From the sequence record OQ873415.1: 64,000 nucleotides of DNA; one strand, written 5' to 3'. Both the position numbers and the translations under genes were made by a program. The first letter of the stretch is position 1. Every line of letters begins with the position of its first letter. The notes under the pieces are model-generated. The model was given only the letters and a program-made list of their open reading frames with translations, ran no database searches and had not been told where the DNA came from. Shown here piece after piece: positions 3,580 through 36,620 of the stretch. Source of the DNA: Escherichia phage PECP20.

Positions 3580-4482
3580 TTATAGACCAGCTAACAGGTC
3601 ATCGAGGTCGCCATCATCAGAGGATGAGGTAGAGCTCATGAAGTCATCTTCAGTTTTTGCAGAACTAAAGGCTTCCATGTCTTTATCAAAATCGTCAAGG
3701 TCAGAAGCAACTTTATCTGCAACAGAAGCTGCTGCGGCTGCTGCACCACCAAGAGCGGCAGTACCAAGAACCTTAGCGAAAGATTCATTTAATTTTTCAA
3801 AGGATTTGAACTGGTCTTTAGCCGTCAAAGTAGTAAGGTCTACCATCTGGTCATATAGTTCTTTCTGGAATGCTTCGTCATTAATACGAGGAATTTCAGA
3901 TTGACCCAAGAATTTAGATTCGTCGTAGTTGCTAAAACCAGAAACCTGCTTAGCTTTCAGAACGAAGTTAGCACCTTCAAACGGACAAGTAACATCAACT
4001 GGAGTTTCACCCATTTCGGTATCAACTGCAATCATTGCATTGATTTTGTCCCAAATCTTTTTACCGAAACGATATTTAAATACTTTACCTTCGTTATCTG
4101 GAGCTTGAGGGTCTTTAACAACCAGAATATTAGCCCAATAAGAAGTTTTACGTTTCAGTTGAGAATATTCAGTTTTGTTGGTATTGTACAGGTCATTTTT
4201 ACTAATGTACTGACATACAGGACAAGAGTCGTAATCACCATGTGTAGAAGAGCAATTTTCAATATACCATTTACCATTTTTCTTGAAACCGTGGTTAACA
4301 AGAATTGCAAATGGTAGTGCATCATCAGTTTTTGCTGGCAAGAAACGAATTACCGCTTGACCATTACCTGATGCATCTAGCTTCAGCTTCCATTCGCCTT
4401 TATCTTCTGAAGAGAAACCTTTGTTACCGTTCAGTTTAGCCATTTGAGCAGCGAGGTCAGCAGTAGATTTACGTTTAAACAT
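3580..4482 (-). CDS. 32: Single-stranded DNA-binding protein gp32
   Basis: 300 aa; [23 protein letters not shown]... zinc-binding Cys/His cluster and acidic Ser/Asp-rich C-terminus as in T4 gp32. Confidence 0.95.
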
Positions 4483-31319: not shown

Positions 31320-31499
31320 TTATCCCTTCTTAAGTAAGTCGTAAAAACCACCATTCACATGTTTAGGAGCAGAAACCCGACGAGTAGACAGACGATGACA
31401 TTCAGGGCAAACATCGTTTTCTCGTTCAGAAATCCTTTTAATTTTTTCATATTCATGGCCACAATCTTCAGATTGACATTTATAGTCGTATAACGGCAT
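31320..31499 (-). CDS. small zinc-ribbon protein (59 aa)
   Basis: Hand-translated: MPLYDYKCQSEDCGHEYEKIKRISERENDVCPECHRLSTRRVSAPKHVNGGFYDLLKKG; CxxC...CxxC; not in ORF track (below size cut-off). Confidence 0.45.
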   Translation of the reverse strand: MPLYDYKCQSEDCGHEYEKIKRISERENDVCPECHRLSTRRVSAPKHVNGGFYDLLKKG

Positions 31500-31501
31500 T
31501 A

Positions 31502-31924
31502 TTATTCCTTAAAATGTGCTTTCAACATTTGATACAAAGACCATGCCTGGTCGTTATTTTCGATAGTAACTTTCATTACTGGGAATTCTGTGAAATCTTC
31601 TATCTGTTCTTGCTCTTCAGATGCTTGATATGGATTTCCAACTTCATCAAAAAACTCTGCTTCACTAGTAGAGAGCCAGATAAAGTTTTCATCAAGAATA
31701 TCACCACCAGTTGCGTATCCAACCATGCCAGTAGATGTCACAATTTTAGTAGGTCGTCCAAGATGGTCAACATCTAATACTTTAAATGGTTCCATGCCAA
31801 GACGTCGTGCATAAATCCCATTATCAGTGTGGTTTTTAATAAACTCTTCTTGGGCACGTTTATCTTTAAATTGGTACCATGAGTTAACGCGGAATTTATT
31901 AGCCATTAGTAAGTTTCCTTCCAA
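31502..31924 (-). CDS. hypothetical protein
   Basis: 140-aa ORF, coupled to flanking ORFs. Confidence 0.5.
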
Positions 31925-32178
31925 TAAGTTGTACCGTTTTCAGTGATTTCACGGAAGATACCATAGATAGGCATTTCATCACCGAGTTTTTCGTAAACGT
32001 AAACCACTTCAGTGTAGCATAAAAATTCAGTCCAGTTTTTCTGTACAACAACTAAATCAGGATTAAACAGAACATCTTCAAACTCATCGATGTTTGAATC
32101 AGTAGTTACGTTTTTAATGATTTGACGTTTCATAATATTCTCCTCTTGTTTTGATAGGTCTATAGTATCATAGACCAT
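31906..32178 (-). CDS. hypothetical protein
   Basis: 90-aa ORF with early promoter at 32161-32190. Confidence 0.45.
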
Positions 32179-32190
32179 AGTTGTTGTACA

Positions 32191-32715
32191 TCATTTTAGC
32201 AAAATAAAATCAACTTGTTCTGCCAATGAACGTCTAAACATTAATTGACAACTTCCGAGGATGAAATCAGGTGCTTCATAGACCGCGATGTAGTATCCTT
32301 TAGCTTTCAAGAGTTCAACATCCACCTGGTCATCAAACCATGCATAAACCGCGTCAACGCTTTCAAATCCAAAATAGAACCCTTGAGCCCAATCTTCACT
32401 CAATTCAAATGTGTACTCAATTCTATGGTATCTTAAGATATTTTGTTCAAGAAGTTTGTCTTCATTTACTGTAGGACGATTAGGGACATTATAGTTGTCG
32501 CCGTGATGGTAGAAGTTACCTGAGATTATTCCATGTTTATCAAGGAACTCCCATGTTTCTTCAGAGTTGTCAGTGCCAGACCAACCGTAAGGTGAGCGTG
32601 GTTCTTTATTCCAAGAGGTTTCCCAAATTCTGACGGCTTTACCGTCTTCGATAGCAATTCCTGGTAATGATTCACGTTGAGTACAAAAACTACGTTCTAC
32701 GCGGTAAACTAACAT
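32191..32715 (-). CDS. hypothetical protein
   Basis: 174-aa ORF, Trp-rich. Confidence 0.5.
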   Translation of the reverse strand: MLVYRVERSFCTQRESLPGIAIEDGKAVRIWETSWNKEPRSPYGWSGTDNSEETWEFLDKHGIISGNFYHHGDNYNVPNRPTVNEDKLLEQNILRYHRIEYTFELSEDWAQGFYFGFESVDAVYAWFDDQVDVELLKAKGYYIAVYEAPDFILGSCQLMFRRSLAEQVDFILLK

Positions 32716-32774
32716 ATTATTCTCCTCTGGTTAATATGGTTATAATATCAAAACCAGAGGAGAAGTAAACAACT

Positions 32775-33194
32775 TTATGCGAAAGCAGCTGGGCTATATT
32801 TTTTAATTTGGAATTCAGGAACTACCATGAACTGTCCAGCGAAAACGATGTTATAAAGCTTAACACCATCTTCTACCCAACGGTCGCTAATAAAACCAGC
32901 AATTTGCTTAGTTTTCCATGGCGTTCCATCAGTTGCCGCAGCAATAGTGAATTCATGGTCTTTTTCAACAGAAACTGATCTGCATAGTCCCCATTTGAAC
33001 GCTTTTTCTTCCGGTTCAATGAATTGGCCTGAGACATAGCCAATGTTACCATCGGCGTCACGAACTTTAACTTCATTACGTCCAAAAACCGGATCGCTCA
33101 CAGAAAGAACTTCAACCAACTTCCCGGCAACTTTAGAGCGAGAAGCAACAGATACATATACGTAATCACCTGTAGAGAGATTTACAATATTCAT
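32775..33194 (-). CDS. hypothetical protein, member 1 of tandem paralogue triplet
   Basis: 139 aa; shares SRSK.AGKLVEV, FKW.LC and GFISD.WVEDG.KLYNIVF.G.F.VV motifs with next ORF. Confidence 0.5.
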   Translation of the reverse strand: MNIVNLSTGDYVYVSVASRSKVAGKLVEVLSVSDPVFGRNEVKVRDADGNIGYVSGQFIEPEEKAFKWGLCRSVSVEKDHEFTIAAATDGTPWKTKQIAGFISDRWVEDGVKLYNIVFAGQFMVVPEFQIKKYSPAAFA

Positions 33195-33203
33195 AATAAT
33201 TCC

Positions 33204-33689
33204 TTAAGCTTTACGAGGAGACACATAGCGAGTGATTTCAGATTCTTTAACAACTCGGAAGTCACCTAAGAATACGATATTGTATAACTTTTCACCATCT
33301 TCTACCCATTGGTCACTAATGAAGCCACACATAGTATCAGTTTTGCTTGGATAACCGTATTCATCGATGAAGTCAAATTCTTTATCAGTCTGGAATTCAA
33401 CACCTTTACACAAGGCCCATTTGAACTGTGCATTAGGCTCTGTGGATTCAACTTTTTCTCTTGAAGCAAAAGCACCACTCACAGGAGTTTCCAAGAACTT
33501 TGCACGAACATAAGCAAATTGGGTTTCCATTGACCCAAGACTAGGAATAATACGAACTTTTACCTCAGAATCTTCATCTTTAACACCTTCTTTAAGTTGA
33601 ATACTTACAACTTCGACCAATTTTCCTGCTGCTTTAGAACGAGATTTGTTAGATACGCGAACGATTTCACCAATAATACCAAGATTCAT
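33204..33689 (-). CDS. hypothetical protein, member 2 of tandem paralogue triplet
   Basis: 161 aa; same motifs as 32775-33194. Confidence 0.5.
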   Translation of the reverse strand: MNLGIIGEIVRVSNKSRSKAAGKLVEVVSIQLKEGVKDEDSEVKVRIIPSLGSMETQFAYVRAKFLETPVSGAFASREKVESTEPNAQFKWALCKGVEFQTDKEFDFIDEYGYPSKTDTMCGFISDQWVEDGEKLYNIVFLGDFRVVKESEITRYVSPRKA

Positions 33690-33750
33690 AATTTTCTCTC
33701 TTTGTTTAAGTTGAATTCATTATACTCCATCCGTCCTTGGATGTACAACA

Positions 33751-34245
33751 TTAATTAAGGATATTAACCACAGCACTACGTGGAACTACACTAAAATCAC
33801 CTGCATGAACAACGTTCAGAAGTTCAACACCGTCTTCAATCCACTGATCAGTCACCCATCCATTTACTGGACCAGCGAATGGGCGTCGAATTGAAACATA
33901 TTTACACAACAAATCGGTAGGCTCAATAGGCTTAATCAGAGTACCGTACATACAAGCGATATCCATATCAATACAGATATCTTTAACGGGTTCTACTTCT
34001 TCAATCAACAGTTCAAAGTCGGTGCTTGGAAGGGCGGTGGTAGAAATTGTACCATATGAATTTTTAATTTCTAAGAATAACCAAGGGCCTTCAACTTGTT
34101 TGATGAAGTTAACAATAGTGAAACTATTACCTTGAGTGGCACCTAAAATTTCGCAAAACTTTTCATAAGCTCGCACTGAAGCACTGTACCAGTTGATTTG
34201 TTTTTCGTCTTTCAGGATATAAGTAGCCGTAGTATTGATATTCAT
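33751..34245 (-). CDS. hypothetical protein, member 3 (divergent) of tandem paralogue triplet
   Basis: 164 aa; shares C-terminal GWVTDQWIEDGVELLNVVHAGDFSVV with the other two. Confidence 0.5.
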   Translation of the reverse strand: MNINTTATYILKDEKQINWYSASVRAYEKFCEILGATQGNSFTIVNFIKQVEGPWLFLEIKNSYGTISTTALPSTDFELLIEEVEPVKDICIDMDIACMYGTLIKPIEPTDLLCKYVSIRRPFAGPVNGWVTDQWIEDGVELLNVVHAGDFSVVPRSAVVNILN

Positions 34246-34276
34246 AATGTTTTTCCTGTTTGGTTAAGATAGAAAG

Positions 34277-34306
34277 ATTATACTCCAACCATCCTTGGTT
34301 GTAAAC
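34277..34306 (-). promoter_or_regulatory. Early promoter upstream of ORF 33751-34245
   Basis: Minus strand GTTTAC ... GTATAAT (plus text attatact ... gtaaac). Confidence 0.45.
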
Positions 34307-34311
34307 TGATT

Positions 34312-34989
34312 TTATCGCTGTTTTACACTTAACGGGTCAGGATTCTCAGGGACATCTTCAAGGCCAAGCGCATAACGCTGAGCATATTTTAACATCAAAA
34401 TATCTTTAGCACAATCATGAACACTATCATGGGCAACGAATCCTTTTAGCGTACCCATTGGTAACGGACACATACTTAATCCTCGCGTCAACGAGTAAGC
34501 TTCGATTGCCGTACGAATATCGCGTTGAGCCCAGAATTTAACCGGTTCTAATTTATCAGTATCAATATCTGGTTCAAGAACACCTTCATCACGATAGAGG
34601 TCACGAATCAAATCGACCAAGATTGGGAAGTCAAAACTCATACCACGGCACCACATTTGTGATTTCCATTGGTCAACTTTATTAGCTCGACAATAATCTA
34701 AAAAGATTTTAATGCCATCAAGCGTAGTGACATCGTCTTCAGATGGGGCCAAGTTTTTACGTGCTTCAGCCGATTGTTCTTTCCACCATTTCATGGTGGA
34801 TTTAGCGAAAACTCGCTTCCCTTTTTGAGAAGCTAAATTAAATTTAATTCGCTTACCTCGTTGAACAAGTTCTTCGAATGATTCAACAACTTCAGGGTCT
34901 GAATTATATGCAATAACCGCAAGGTCAATAACAGCCGCTTTTGATGTATTGCCGAATGTTTCAAAGTCTATAATAACATCAGTGCTCAT
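34312..34989 (-). CDS. dexA: Exonuclease A (DEDDh 3'-5' exonuclease)
   Basis: 225 aa (T4 DexA 227 aa); N-terminal IIDFETFG motif and C-terminal H-x4-D motif. Confidence 0.8.
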   Translation of the reverse strand: MSTDVIIDFETFGNTSKAAVIDLAVIAYNSDPEVVESFEELVQRGKRIKFNLASQKGKRVFAKSTMKWWKEQSAEARKNLAPSEDDVTTLDGIKIFLDYCRANKVDQWKSQMWCRGMSFDFPILVDLIRDLYRDEGVLEPDIDTDKLEPVKFWAQRDIRTAIEAYSLTRGLSMCPLPMGTLKGFVAHDSVHDCAKDILMLKYAQRYALGLEDVPENPDPLSVKQR

Positions 34990-34998
34990 AATTTTCTC

Positions 34999-36312
34999 TC
35001 AAATAAAATGGACGTCAAAACGACCACGAGTTGTGCCGACATACAATAGCTGTTTAGCTAATTCTGAATCGGCATAATGGATACACGGTGTATAAACAAA
35101 GGCCGTGTCAACAGACATACCCTGAGCCTTATGGAAGGTTGATACAGGTAGCGCCTTCACCTTAGTGAACATGCGTTTAGCATCCCAGAATTTACTCCAT
35201 GGAGCTTTACCACCTTTATTCCAGAATTTGTATGTTTCTGCGGTCTTAGCCAAAAACAAATTGAATTTATAAAGCTCTTCTTCGGAAGAAATAACCTTTA
35301 TATCCTCGCGGACGTATTCTTCATCATCCCCATATGTTTCTACTGTAAGATTCCAGTATCGTATCATATATTCGCCTGAAACACCACGTGCTTTAACGAA
35401 TGTAGACGTTTCTACAGCATCTCGAATACGAACGAATTGCCCGTTATTGAAAAGCATTTCGGTCATATTTTTGCCATCTAGCTTATACGTCTTGGTAAAC
35501 GGCTCTTGTAGAACAATGACTTCGTCTTTAATAAATGGCTTTTCTGTTTCAAGAAGTTTTCGGCGAATAATTGAATTTAACTTGTCCACCGACTTATTTG
35601 TGAATGCCATCATTCGATTTTCGAAAAGGTCTTCAGGAGTTTTAACGACATTAAAATAGTTCATCATATACGATTTAAGGTCTGTATATCCATGAACACC
35701 GTGCCCATCAACTACTTTATCATAAATCCATTTGCCATTACGAATATCAGTCGCAACATCAATAATTGGTGCATTGCTACGTTTAACTTCTGTAAGGTTG
35801 CATTGCACGAAGTCTTTGTGAGTGAAGAAAGGACTTAGATACGCAGTGGATTCGCCTGGGTCTACCGGACGAATCTGGCATCGGTCACCAATTCCAATTA
35901 CTGTGCACCATTTAGGGATACTAGCTAACATTATTTTAAACAGAGAACGGTCACACATTGATGCTTCATCAAATAACAGTACACGACACAAGGCTAAGTC
36001 GGGAACCTTTTTCTGTTCAAATAATACGTTTTCTTCGTATGTAGTTGGGTTGATTTTAAGAATGCTATGAATAGTCGATGCTTCTTGACCCGCAAGTTTG
36101 CTTAGAACCTTTTTAGCAGCATGTGTAGGGGCTGCTAAAATAATACCTGATTCTCCGGCAGAAATAAGGGCTTCAACGATGAATCTAGTAAGGGTTGTTT
36201 TACCTGTACCAGCAGGCCCGTTAATAGTTACGTGATGTTTCTTTTCTTTAATAGCTTTCATAACAACGTTGAAGGCGTTTTTCTGGCCTTCGGTCAAATC
36301 ATCAAATGTCAT
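34999..36312 (-). CDS. dda: DNA helicase Dda (SF1B)
   Basis: 437 aa (T4 Dda 439 aa); Walker A GPAGTGKTT, N-terminus MTFDDLTEGQKNAFN. Confidence 0.9.
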   Translation of the reverse strand: MTFDDLTEGQKNAFNVVMKAIKEKKHHVTINGPAGTGKTTLTRFIVEALISAGESGIILAAPTHAAKKVLSKLAGQEASTIHSILKINPTTYEENVLFEQKKVPDLALCRVLLFDEASMCDRSLFKIMLASIPKWCTVIGIGDRCQIRPVDPGESTAYLSPFFTHKDFVQCNLTEVKRSNAPIIDVATDIRNGKWIYDKVVDGHGVHGYTDLKSYMMNYFNVVKTPEDLFENRMMAFTNKSVDKLNSIIRRKLLETEKPFIKDEVIVLQEPFTKTYKLDGKNMTEMLFNNGQFVRIRDAVETSTFVKARGVSGEYMIRYWNLTVETYGDDEEYVREDIKVISSEEELYKFNLFLAKTAETYKFWNKGGKAPWSKFWDAKRMFTKVKALPVSTFHKAQGMSVDTAFVYTPCIHYADSELAKQLLYVGTTRGRFDVHFI

Positions 36313-36620
36313 CGTAAAGTCCCTGCAATTGGAATACTAACAATACGGCCAGTATCTAGAATTCGTTGATACAATCTTTGCGTCTCCGCATCTAGTTTAA
36401 TGTGTTTCATTTCAAGCTTATTAAACCAGAACTTACGCGGAGTTTCGACCATTCTTAGAACTCCCATTTTTAAATCTGTTTTATACTGTGTTTTCAAAGT
36501 ATCGAAAACTTTATCTGCAATATCCTTTCTAAAAAATACTGCAGGACGATGTTCATCAAGTGGAACTGGGACAGTAAATCCTTCCATATCTCGATAAACT
36601 ATTGCATATACATAAACCAT
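36309..36620 (-). CDS. hypothetical protein (dda.1 position)
   Basis: 103-aa ORF, ATGA overlap with dda. Confidence 0.45.
   Translation of the reverse strand: MVYVYAIVYRDMEGFTVPVPLDEHRPAVFFRKDIADKVFDTLKTQYKTDLKMGVLRMVETPRKFWFNKLEMKHIKLDAETQRLYQRILDTGRIVSIPIAGTLR

Follow-up and report, generated by a model that had tools for sequence, protein, structure and literature searches.

Three adjacent small genes of Escherichia phage PECP20 (OQ873415.1) affiliate, by profile and pairwise sequence comparison, to the known MotB/MotB.1 family and are in transcriptional order motB.1 (ORF3), motB (ORF2) and a second motB copy like that of RB69 (ORF1). They were analysed within the window, which is the whole stretch of 64,000 nucleotides. 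We hold with fair confidence the overall reading as a Mosigvirus-type, RB69-like MotB block together with the expression and functions proposed below for ORF1 to ORF3. The finding is a rediscovery of a described family in a described arrangement, since the shared C-terminal domain, the idea of a duplication and the RB69 arrangement were all published in 2021. MotB and MotB.1 have a conserved C-terminal domain in common and differ in their N-terminal domains, the duplication of one gene into the other has been proposed, and RB69 was reported to carry motB twice and motB.1 once, besides a 29-aa peptide (Patterson-West et al. 2021, PMC7827196). Added here are a fold suggestion for the shared module, the acidic charge of the proteins in the window and the purifying selection on their genes.

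Gene order and family assignment

All genes across 31.5-36.3 kb of the window are encoded on the minus strand. In the direction of transcription, their order is dda, dexA, ORF3, ORF2, ORF1, a 174-aa gene, cef and goF:

34999-36312, minus strand: dda
34312-34989, minus strand: dexA (Pfam Rv2179c-like exonuclease; PHROG exonuclease)
33751-34245, minus strand: ORF3, 164 aa, MotB.1 family (phrog_2333, PF17613, AF2 model)
33204-33689, minus strand: ORF2, 161 aa, MotB orthologue (PF17613, BLASTP against T4 MotB, AF2 model)
32775-33194, minus strand: ORF1, 139 aa, second MotB copy, the equivalent of RB69ORF010c (PF17613, phrog_1671)
32191-32715, minus strand: 174-aa gene, homologue of T4 MotB.2
31906-32178, minus strand: cef
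31502-31924, minus strand: goF

The preliminary description had reported adjacent ORFs of 139, 161 and 164 aa, and the coordinates and lengths proved exact, on the minus strand. It had also placed the trio upstream of dexA. Because every local gene is on the minus strand, the three genes are transcriptionally downstream of dexA. In front of the 174-aa gene, the Shine-Dalgarno sequence is paired within a strong hairpin (-22.7 kcal/mol, z = -5), which also contains a promoter-like site.

All three proteins scored above the curated gathering cut-off (25 bits) of the Pfam family PF17613 (motB, modifier of transcription). ORF2 reached 180 bits (4e-53, profile positions 5-157 of 162), ORF1 76.1 bits (3.8e-21) and ORF3 35.3 bits, the match of the latter being restricted to profile positions 78-153. 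In view of these matches and of the published family (PMC7827196), the trio is no uncharacterised gene set. In the PHROGs collection, ORF1 (2.1e-51) and ORF2 were assigned to phrog_1671, the MotB-like transcriptional regulators, and ORF3 to phrog_2333 (1.2e-82). ORF2 is 58% identical to T4 MotB (NP_049626) over 152 aa (E 1e-60), and ORF3 aligned end to end with the intact T4 MotB.1 at 46% identity (E 4e-47). The two-domain architecture of MotB, a KOW-like N-terminal domain followed by a C-terminal β domain, is present in ORF1 and ORF2, but not in ORF3. The latter has a non-KOW N-terminal domain and the MotB.1-type core GWVTDQWIEDGVELLNVVHAG, which is invariant in the family alignment.

The window shares 99.8% identity with Escherichia phage CAU_ECP01; with Mosigvirus genomes, e.g. 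Shf125875, the identity is about 97%. The trio lies in the early dexA-cef block in synteny with T4, RB69 and Shf125875, and the counterparts of ORF1 are annotated as MotB-like in Shf125875 and RB69. RB69 shows the identical arrangement, in which dexA and the motB.2 homologue enclose two motB-type genes and motB.1; RB69ORF010c is 95.7% identical to ORF1, and RB69 MotB, annotated with 151 aa, is 81% identical to ORF2. In T4, only one MotB-type gene is present, compared with two in the window, and the order is dexA-motB.2-motB.1-motB-cef instead of dexA-motB.1-motB-motB'-motB.2-cef. T4 MotB resembles ORF2 in its length, KOW-like N-terminal domain, linker, C-terminal β domain, position in the dexA-cef block and early promoter, and it has both domains in common with ORF1 at 39% identity. 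The intact T4 MotB.1 (143 aa, QPI17238 in MT984581; phrog_2333) is nearly identical to ORF3 in the C-terminal 57 residues, and its N-terminal domain, published as LSm-like, is of the same type. The two proteins differ by a 20-residue interdomain insertion in ORF3 which carries the peptide IDMDIACMYGTLIKP.

Reference-sequence frameshifts in motB.1

Judged by comparison of deposited sequences, both the 119-aa MotB.1 of T4 and the RB69 29-aa peptide are reference-sequence frameshifts of an intact gene. In the T4 reference genome, MotB.1 is annotated with 119 aa and ends with GWVTDQWIGRWR before the stop codon; the next frame runs on with EDGVELLNVVHAGEYSVVPRSAVVAILN to a stop of its own. As this frame continues the conserved motif, one extra G splits the motif in the T4 reference. 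In the GenBank phage collection, all 13 other records with at least 99.6% identity, comprising eleven T4 isolates including T4T as well as RB55 and RB59, aligned with 460 bases instead of 461 at T4 motB.1. An intact 143-aa MotB.1 is encoded in MT984581 and likewise in one sequence cluster present on 256 contigs; the T4 genomes that were sequenced again all code for the 143-aa form. Exact-pattern scans of IMG/VR with the two junction variants of T4 motB.1 gave no match. The RB69 29-aa peptide corresponds to the out-of-frame tail of motB.1, two single-base insertions having resulted in ORFs of 132 aa and 29 aa. The gene is thus split in two in the RB69 reference, whereas it is intact in the window as ORF3.

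The 13.8 kDa given for MotB.1 by Kim et al. (2025, PMC12152347) is the mass of the 119-aa form. The published MotB.1 experiments were apparently performed with this protein, in which the conserved C-terminal module is largely missing, a point that could be of relevance to those who study motB.1.

A shared C-terminal module with different N-terminal domains

ORF1 and ORF2 are similar over their whole length (43% identity, 153 aa, E 1e-29, BLASTP). ORF3 aligned with both proteins in the C-terminal part only, with ORF2 over the final 36 aa at 44% identity (E 3e-10) and with ORF1 at an E-value of 2e-11. A comparison with shuffled controls had been proposed in the preliminary description and was conducted with 1000 shuffles. 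The Smith-Waterman scores of 235 for ORF1/ORF2 and of 103 and 97 for the pairs with ORF3 (z = 37, 16 and 15) were far beyond the shuffle maximum of 60 (means of about 28-30, standard deviation of about 5). Chance similarity was ruled out by these controls, which also excluded the Pfam and BLAST matches as artefacts. Deprived of its last 45 residues, ORF3 yielded z values of only 1.7 and -1.2 against the other two ORFs. At the level of profiles, the C-terminal domains of the MotB and MotB.1 types are homologous over about 49 columns (hhalign probability 99.2%, E 8e-20), whereas the N-terminal domains of the two types gave a probability of 1.6%, i.e. no homology. The suggested local duplication and divergence is upheld for ORF1 and ORF2 as full-length paralogues; ORF3 has only the C-terminal module in common with them.

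The motifs SRSK.AGKLVEV and FKW.LC were found in both ORF1 and ORF2, as had been described. The C-terminal motif is common to all three proteins as proposed, but a few residues differ: ORF3 has GW and VVH in place of GF and VVF, and ORF1 has DRW and GQF in place of DQW and GDF. Recent gene conversion and DNA-level repeats were rejected, as the coding regions hold only one 18-nt stretch (78-83% identity), a limited DNA similarity which indicates that the duplication is old. A search of all six-frame segments of the 64-kb window with a hidden Markov model of the module revealed no further copy of the module beyond the trio, with nothing else at E < 0.3. An internal duplication relating the N- and C-terminal barrels of MotB was also rejected (hhalign probability 0.5-0.9%).

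Structure prediction, likewise proposed earlier, was done on ORF2 and ORF3 with AlphaFold2 (AF2) and family alignments. Both models reached a mean pLDDT of 78 and consist of two β domains and a disordered linker. In ORF2, a KOW/SH3-like β-barrel (residues 1-67) is followed by the linker (70-86) and a β domain (88-161, pLDDT of about 90). In ORF3, the first domain is of α/β type (1-85), followed by the linker (86-108) and a five-stranded C-terminal domain (109-164, pLDDT of about 85-91). ORF1 has both MotB domains, with the linker almost absent. The modules and a conserved peptide in the linker of ORF3 are located as follows:

33754-33924, minus strand: shared C-terminal module, ORF3 residues 108-164 (hhalign, AF2)
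33207-33428, minus strand: shared C-terminal module, ORF2 residues 88-161 (compared with ORF3, a β-hairpin is inserted)
32778-33005, minus strand: shared C-terminal module, ORF1 residues 64-139
33925-33975, minus strand: conserved linker peptide IDMDIACMYGTLIKP of ORF3, about residues 91-107 (pLDDT < 50)

An OB-fold of the cold-shock DNA-binding type was predicted by HHpred for the C-terminal domain of MotB (PMC7827196). In the AF2 models of ORF2 and ORF3, the C-terminal domains have a short helical turn between the final two strands, like SH3-like barrels. The models tentatively suggest that the shared module may be a small β-barrel of the SH3/Tudor/KOW-like kind rather than an OB-fold. A search for solved structures related by sequence returned none, the best hits being short and at chance level (E 0.25 for ORF2, 0.36 for the profile of the C-terminal domain). 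A structure search of BFVD retrieved the same family first and then generic phage small-barrel proteins. The relation to the SH3-like barrels of Tudor, chromo, PWWP and NusG/Spt5 KOW domains is a fold resemblance only, with identities of 10-20%, and there is no hint of methyl-lysine reading.

The C-terminal 57 residues of the MotB.1 type retain 74-88% identity across proteins with lengths of 143-145, 164-169, 176-183 and 245-252 aa, in which they are combined with differing N-terminal parts of at least four lengths. These classes of length and N-terminal domain match the published 'categories', the MotB.1 subfamily being Category 2 (PMC7827196). Kim et al. [quoted passage not shown] As ORF3 has the shared C-terminal domain fused to a different N-terminal domain, we infer that the MotB family is built from one conserved C-terminal module and interchangeable N-terminal domains of nucleic-acid-binding type. 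The linker motif [IV]D.D[IVL][AV][SC]MYGTL[IV]KP occurs in 91 of the 240 cluster representatives that were retrieved; these 91 are all of the MotB.1 type, and no MotB-type member among the 240 has the motif. The position of the IDMDIACMYGTLIKP motif varies; it is found before or after the N-terminal domain.

Expression, charge and proposed functions

Two early-type sigma-70 promoter matches are located in front of ORF3 and ORF2:

34277-34305, minus strand: promoter match before ORF3, TTTACA-17-TATAAT (11/12)
33719-33747, minus strand: promoter match before ORF2, TGTACA-17-TATAAT (10/12)

They are the top two sigma-70 matches in 31400-36500, that of ORF3 being the best, and bear out as predicted sites the early promoters that had been assigned to each of the two genes. 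The cassettes of promoter and 5' leader (54 nt each) are 76% identical. ORF1 starts 9 nt past the stop codon of ORF2, is preceded by the Shine-Dalgarno sequence AAGGA and has no sigma-70 consensus match of its own in the scan of 31400-36500, which points to a probable co-transcription with ORF2. The host sigma-70 RNA polymerase would transcribe the trio right after infection from two near-duplicate early cassettes, with ORF1 transcribed jointly with ORF2.

T4 MotB is produced early and in abundance. It reportedly also compacts DNA, to go by the title of a 2021 article by Son et al. in Nucleic Acids Research. The T4 protein has a toxic effect in E. coli, raises the burst size two-fold and binds host DNA and modified T4 DNA tightly and without sequence specificity; H-NS and StpA co-purify with it, and a knock-down of motB hardly altered the T4 RNA levels (Patterson-West et al. 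2018, PMC6070864). MotB alters the footprints of H-NS, and 75 host genes were up-regulated, about one third of them belonging to the H-NS regulon (Patterson-West et al. 2021, PMC7827196). The earlier guess of a role in host takeover fits, by analogy, this early, toxic, DNA-binding and H-NS-altering protein (PMC6070864, PMC7827196). T7 gp5.5 and T4 Arn resemble MotB in that their target in host takeover is H-NS silencing. Both bind H-NS directly, whereas MotB is found with H-NS only when DNA is present and binds DNA itself (PMC7827196), and neither has a sequence or fold relationship to MotB. For T4 motB.1, the deletion had no phenotype and the protein was without effect on a gene 41 5'UTR reporter (PMC12152347).

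By homology to T4 MotB, ORF2 most likely serves the phage as a nucleoid-associated protein of high abundance. As such, it would cover DNA irrespective of sequence and shift the placement of the host proteins H-NS and StpA on DNA, and this change would derepress some H-NS-silenced genes and modestly increase the burst size. ORF1 has kept both MotB domains, and its dN/dS values (see below) point to purifying selection; most likely, it is a DNA-binding copy that has become sub-functionalised. ORF3 would represent the common C-terminal β-barrel of about 57 residues fused to a distinct N-terminal domain, published as LSm-like.

T4 MotB is a basic protein (pI 9.2, net charge +6). In contrast, ORF2 is acidic (pI 5.2, net charge -3) and only its N-terminal domain is basic; the pI is 5.8 for ORF1 and 4.5 for ORF3. 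Because of this difference, the tight nonspecific DNA binding of T4 MotB may not be carried over unchanged to ORF2, ORF1 or ORF3, and functional conclusions drawn from the basic T4 protein do not automatically apply to its acidic counterparts in Mosigvirus. The C-terminal module has a net charge of -4 in ORF2 and -3 in ORF3. Given this acidity and its fold, the module could act in protein-protein contact or oligomerisation and would not form the main DNA-binding surface.

The charge also bears on the possibility that ORF3, and perhaps the whole family, acts on RNA, with the LSm- and KOW-like N-terminal domains binding transcripts or the transcription/translation machinery. A pI of 4.5 is unlike that of a nonspecific DNA coat protein, and the N-terminal domain of MotB.1 shares its published LSm-like fold with GoF and Frd.2; however, acidic proteins bind RNA poorly too. 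The nearly unaltered T4 RNA levels in the motB knock-down argue against an action on RNA, as does the lack of an effect of T4 MotB.1 in the gene 41 5'UTR reporter. The MotB.1 experiments are not decisive either way because they apparently concern the 119-aa form without most of the C-terminal module. We regard an action on RNA as improbable.

Of the 767 phage records with any match, 207 contain copies that share at least 80% identity with ORF1. Among the records listed, those with such a copy have two matching places each, and those with less than 60% identity to ORF1 have motB only. As the high-identity copies come with a second match and the distant records have only motB, the extra motB copy is, on this record distribution, a lineage-specific duplication of Mosigvirus type. 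The ORF1 orthologues among the matches listed are all intact at 139 aa, with identities of 88-100%. Measured against Shf125875 and RB69, the dN/dS values of the three genes are 0.02-0.26, with 0.12-0.24 for ORF1; by this measure, all three are under purifying selection.

Anti-defence proteins which inhibit a specific bacterial immune system and were duplicated under arms-race selection would agree with the lineage-specific copy number (ORF1 in about 207 of 767 motB-carrying phage records), with the position in a dispensable and variable early region, with the early expression from own predicted promoters and with the modular swapping of N-terminal domains. Selection between close relatives is, however, purifying and not diversifying (dN/dS 0.02-0.26), and T4 MotB is a general DNA-binding, H-NS-affecting protein without a known immune target. 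A literature search found no link of motB or motB.1 to any defence system. The anti-defence role that had been considered for the trio found no supporting evidence in this narrow sense, and we consider it very unlikely. Least credible of all is the view of ORF1 as a redundant or degenerating duplicate that lacks a separate function: its shorter length (139 aa), the missing linker and promoter match and its absence from most T4-like phages would suit this, but the orthologues listed are intact at 139 aa (88-100% identity), the dN/dS against RB69 and Shf125875 is 0.12-0.24, and a Shine-Dalgarno sequence is present at tight spacing behind ORF2.

The assignment to the MotB/MotB.1 family carries little weight as a discovery, since the literature already describes the family, its common C-terminal domain, the hypothesis of a duplication and the RB69-type arrangement. 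It provides correct names for three genes which are still 'hypothetical' in many deposited genomes, and the fold of the shared module deserves re-examination. In a speculative extension, to which we give only a slim chance, the barrel of about 57 residues would not be the DNA-binding OB-fold of the literature but an SH3/Tudor-like module through which MotB, the second MotB and MotB.1 form homo- or hetero-oligomers or contact a common host partner, and IDMDIACMYGTLIKP would be a second docking element. If this were true, phages would tune a nucleoid-remodelling complex by swaps of N-terminal nucleic-acid-binding domains and by copy number.

Gene order and reading frame of motB.1

The genes compared (32191-34245 of the window) run dexA-motB.1-motB-motB'-motB.2-cef, unlike the T4 locus (NC_000866.4, 1154-2662), where the order is dexA-motB.2-motB.1-motB-cef. 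Public names for the window's motB.1 (ORF3) and second MotB copy (ORF1) vary between 'hypothetical protein', 'transcriptional regulator' and 'MotB-like protein'. In the T4 reference, the small ORF dexA.2 (3644-3889, 81 aa) is named 'dextranase' in RefSeq, which looks like a misannotation derived from the gene name. Two reference loci were compared with the intact motB.1 of the window:

T4, NC_000866.4, 1721-2151, minus strand: reference motB.1, to be compared with window 33754-33860
RB69, NC_004928.1, 3377-3873, minus strand: motB.1 region

The T4 reference gene is broken within the conserved motif by a single extra G, leaving an annotated product of 119 aa and 13.8 kDa, and the remainder of the protein is still readable in the +1 frame (EDGVELLNVVHAGEYSVVPRSAVVAILN, ending in a stop). 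All 13 other records of at least 99.6% identity, comprising eleven T4 isolates, RB55 and RB59, have one base fewer at this site, and MT984581 encodes an intact MotB.1 of 143 aa. The 13.8 kDa given for MotB.1 in published work (PMC12152347) is the mass of the truncated form. Compared with the intact motB.1 of the window, the RB69 reference contains two insertions of one base each. The RB69 '29-aa peptide' (RB69p012), which was given its own category in PMC7827196, is the C-terminal tail of motB.1 read out of frame.

Divergence of the encoded proteins

T4 MotB is basic (pI 9.2, net charge +6), whereas its orthologue in the window (ORF2, 33204-33689, minus strand) is acidic (pI 5.2, net charge -3) despite 58% identity. 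Most of this charge gap falls in the loop that follows the KOW barrel and in the C-terminal domain. The window's MotB.1 carries a conserved peptide in a linker predicted to be disordered:

33925-33975, minus strand: IDMDIACMYGTLIKP, ORF3 residues about 91-107

Among 240 retrieved cluster representatives the motif was present in 91, all MotB.1-type; no MotB-type protein among them carried it. Its position varies from close to the N-terminus, through mid-protein, to directly before the C-terminal domain; the peptide may be a short docking motif.

Putative regulatory elements of the cluster

Three elements precede genes of the cluster:

33692-33745: promoter and 5' leader cassette of ORF2
34250-34303: promoter and 5' leader cassette of ORF3
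32719-32763, minus strand: hairpin with a 12-bp stem (TCTCCTCTGGTT...AACCAGAGGAGA), upstream of the 174-aa motB.2 homologue

The two cassettes share 76% identity across a 54-nt stretch that takes in the spacer separating the -35 and -10 hexamers. It follows that duplication or exchange affected the regulatory cassette along with the genes. The predicted hairpin (-22.7 kcal/mol, z = -5) was matched by none of 200 shuffled sequences, and a third copy of its arm occurs upstream of cef (32138-32156). It pairs the Shine-Dalgarno sequence of the motB.2 homologue and encloses a promoter-like site, TTTACT-16-TATTAT. In read-through transcripts the ribosome site of this gene would be masked by the hairpin, and in transcripts begun inside the hairpin it would be unmasked.
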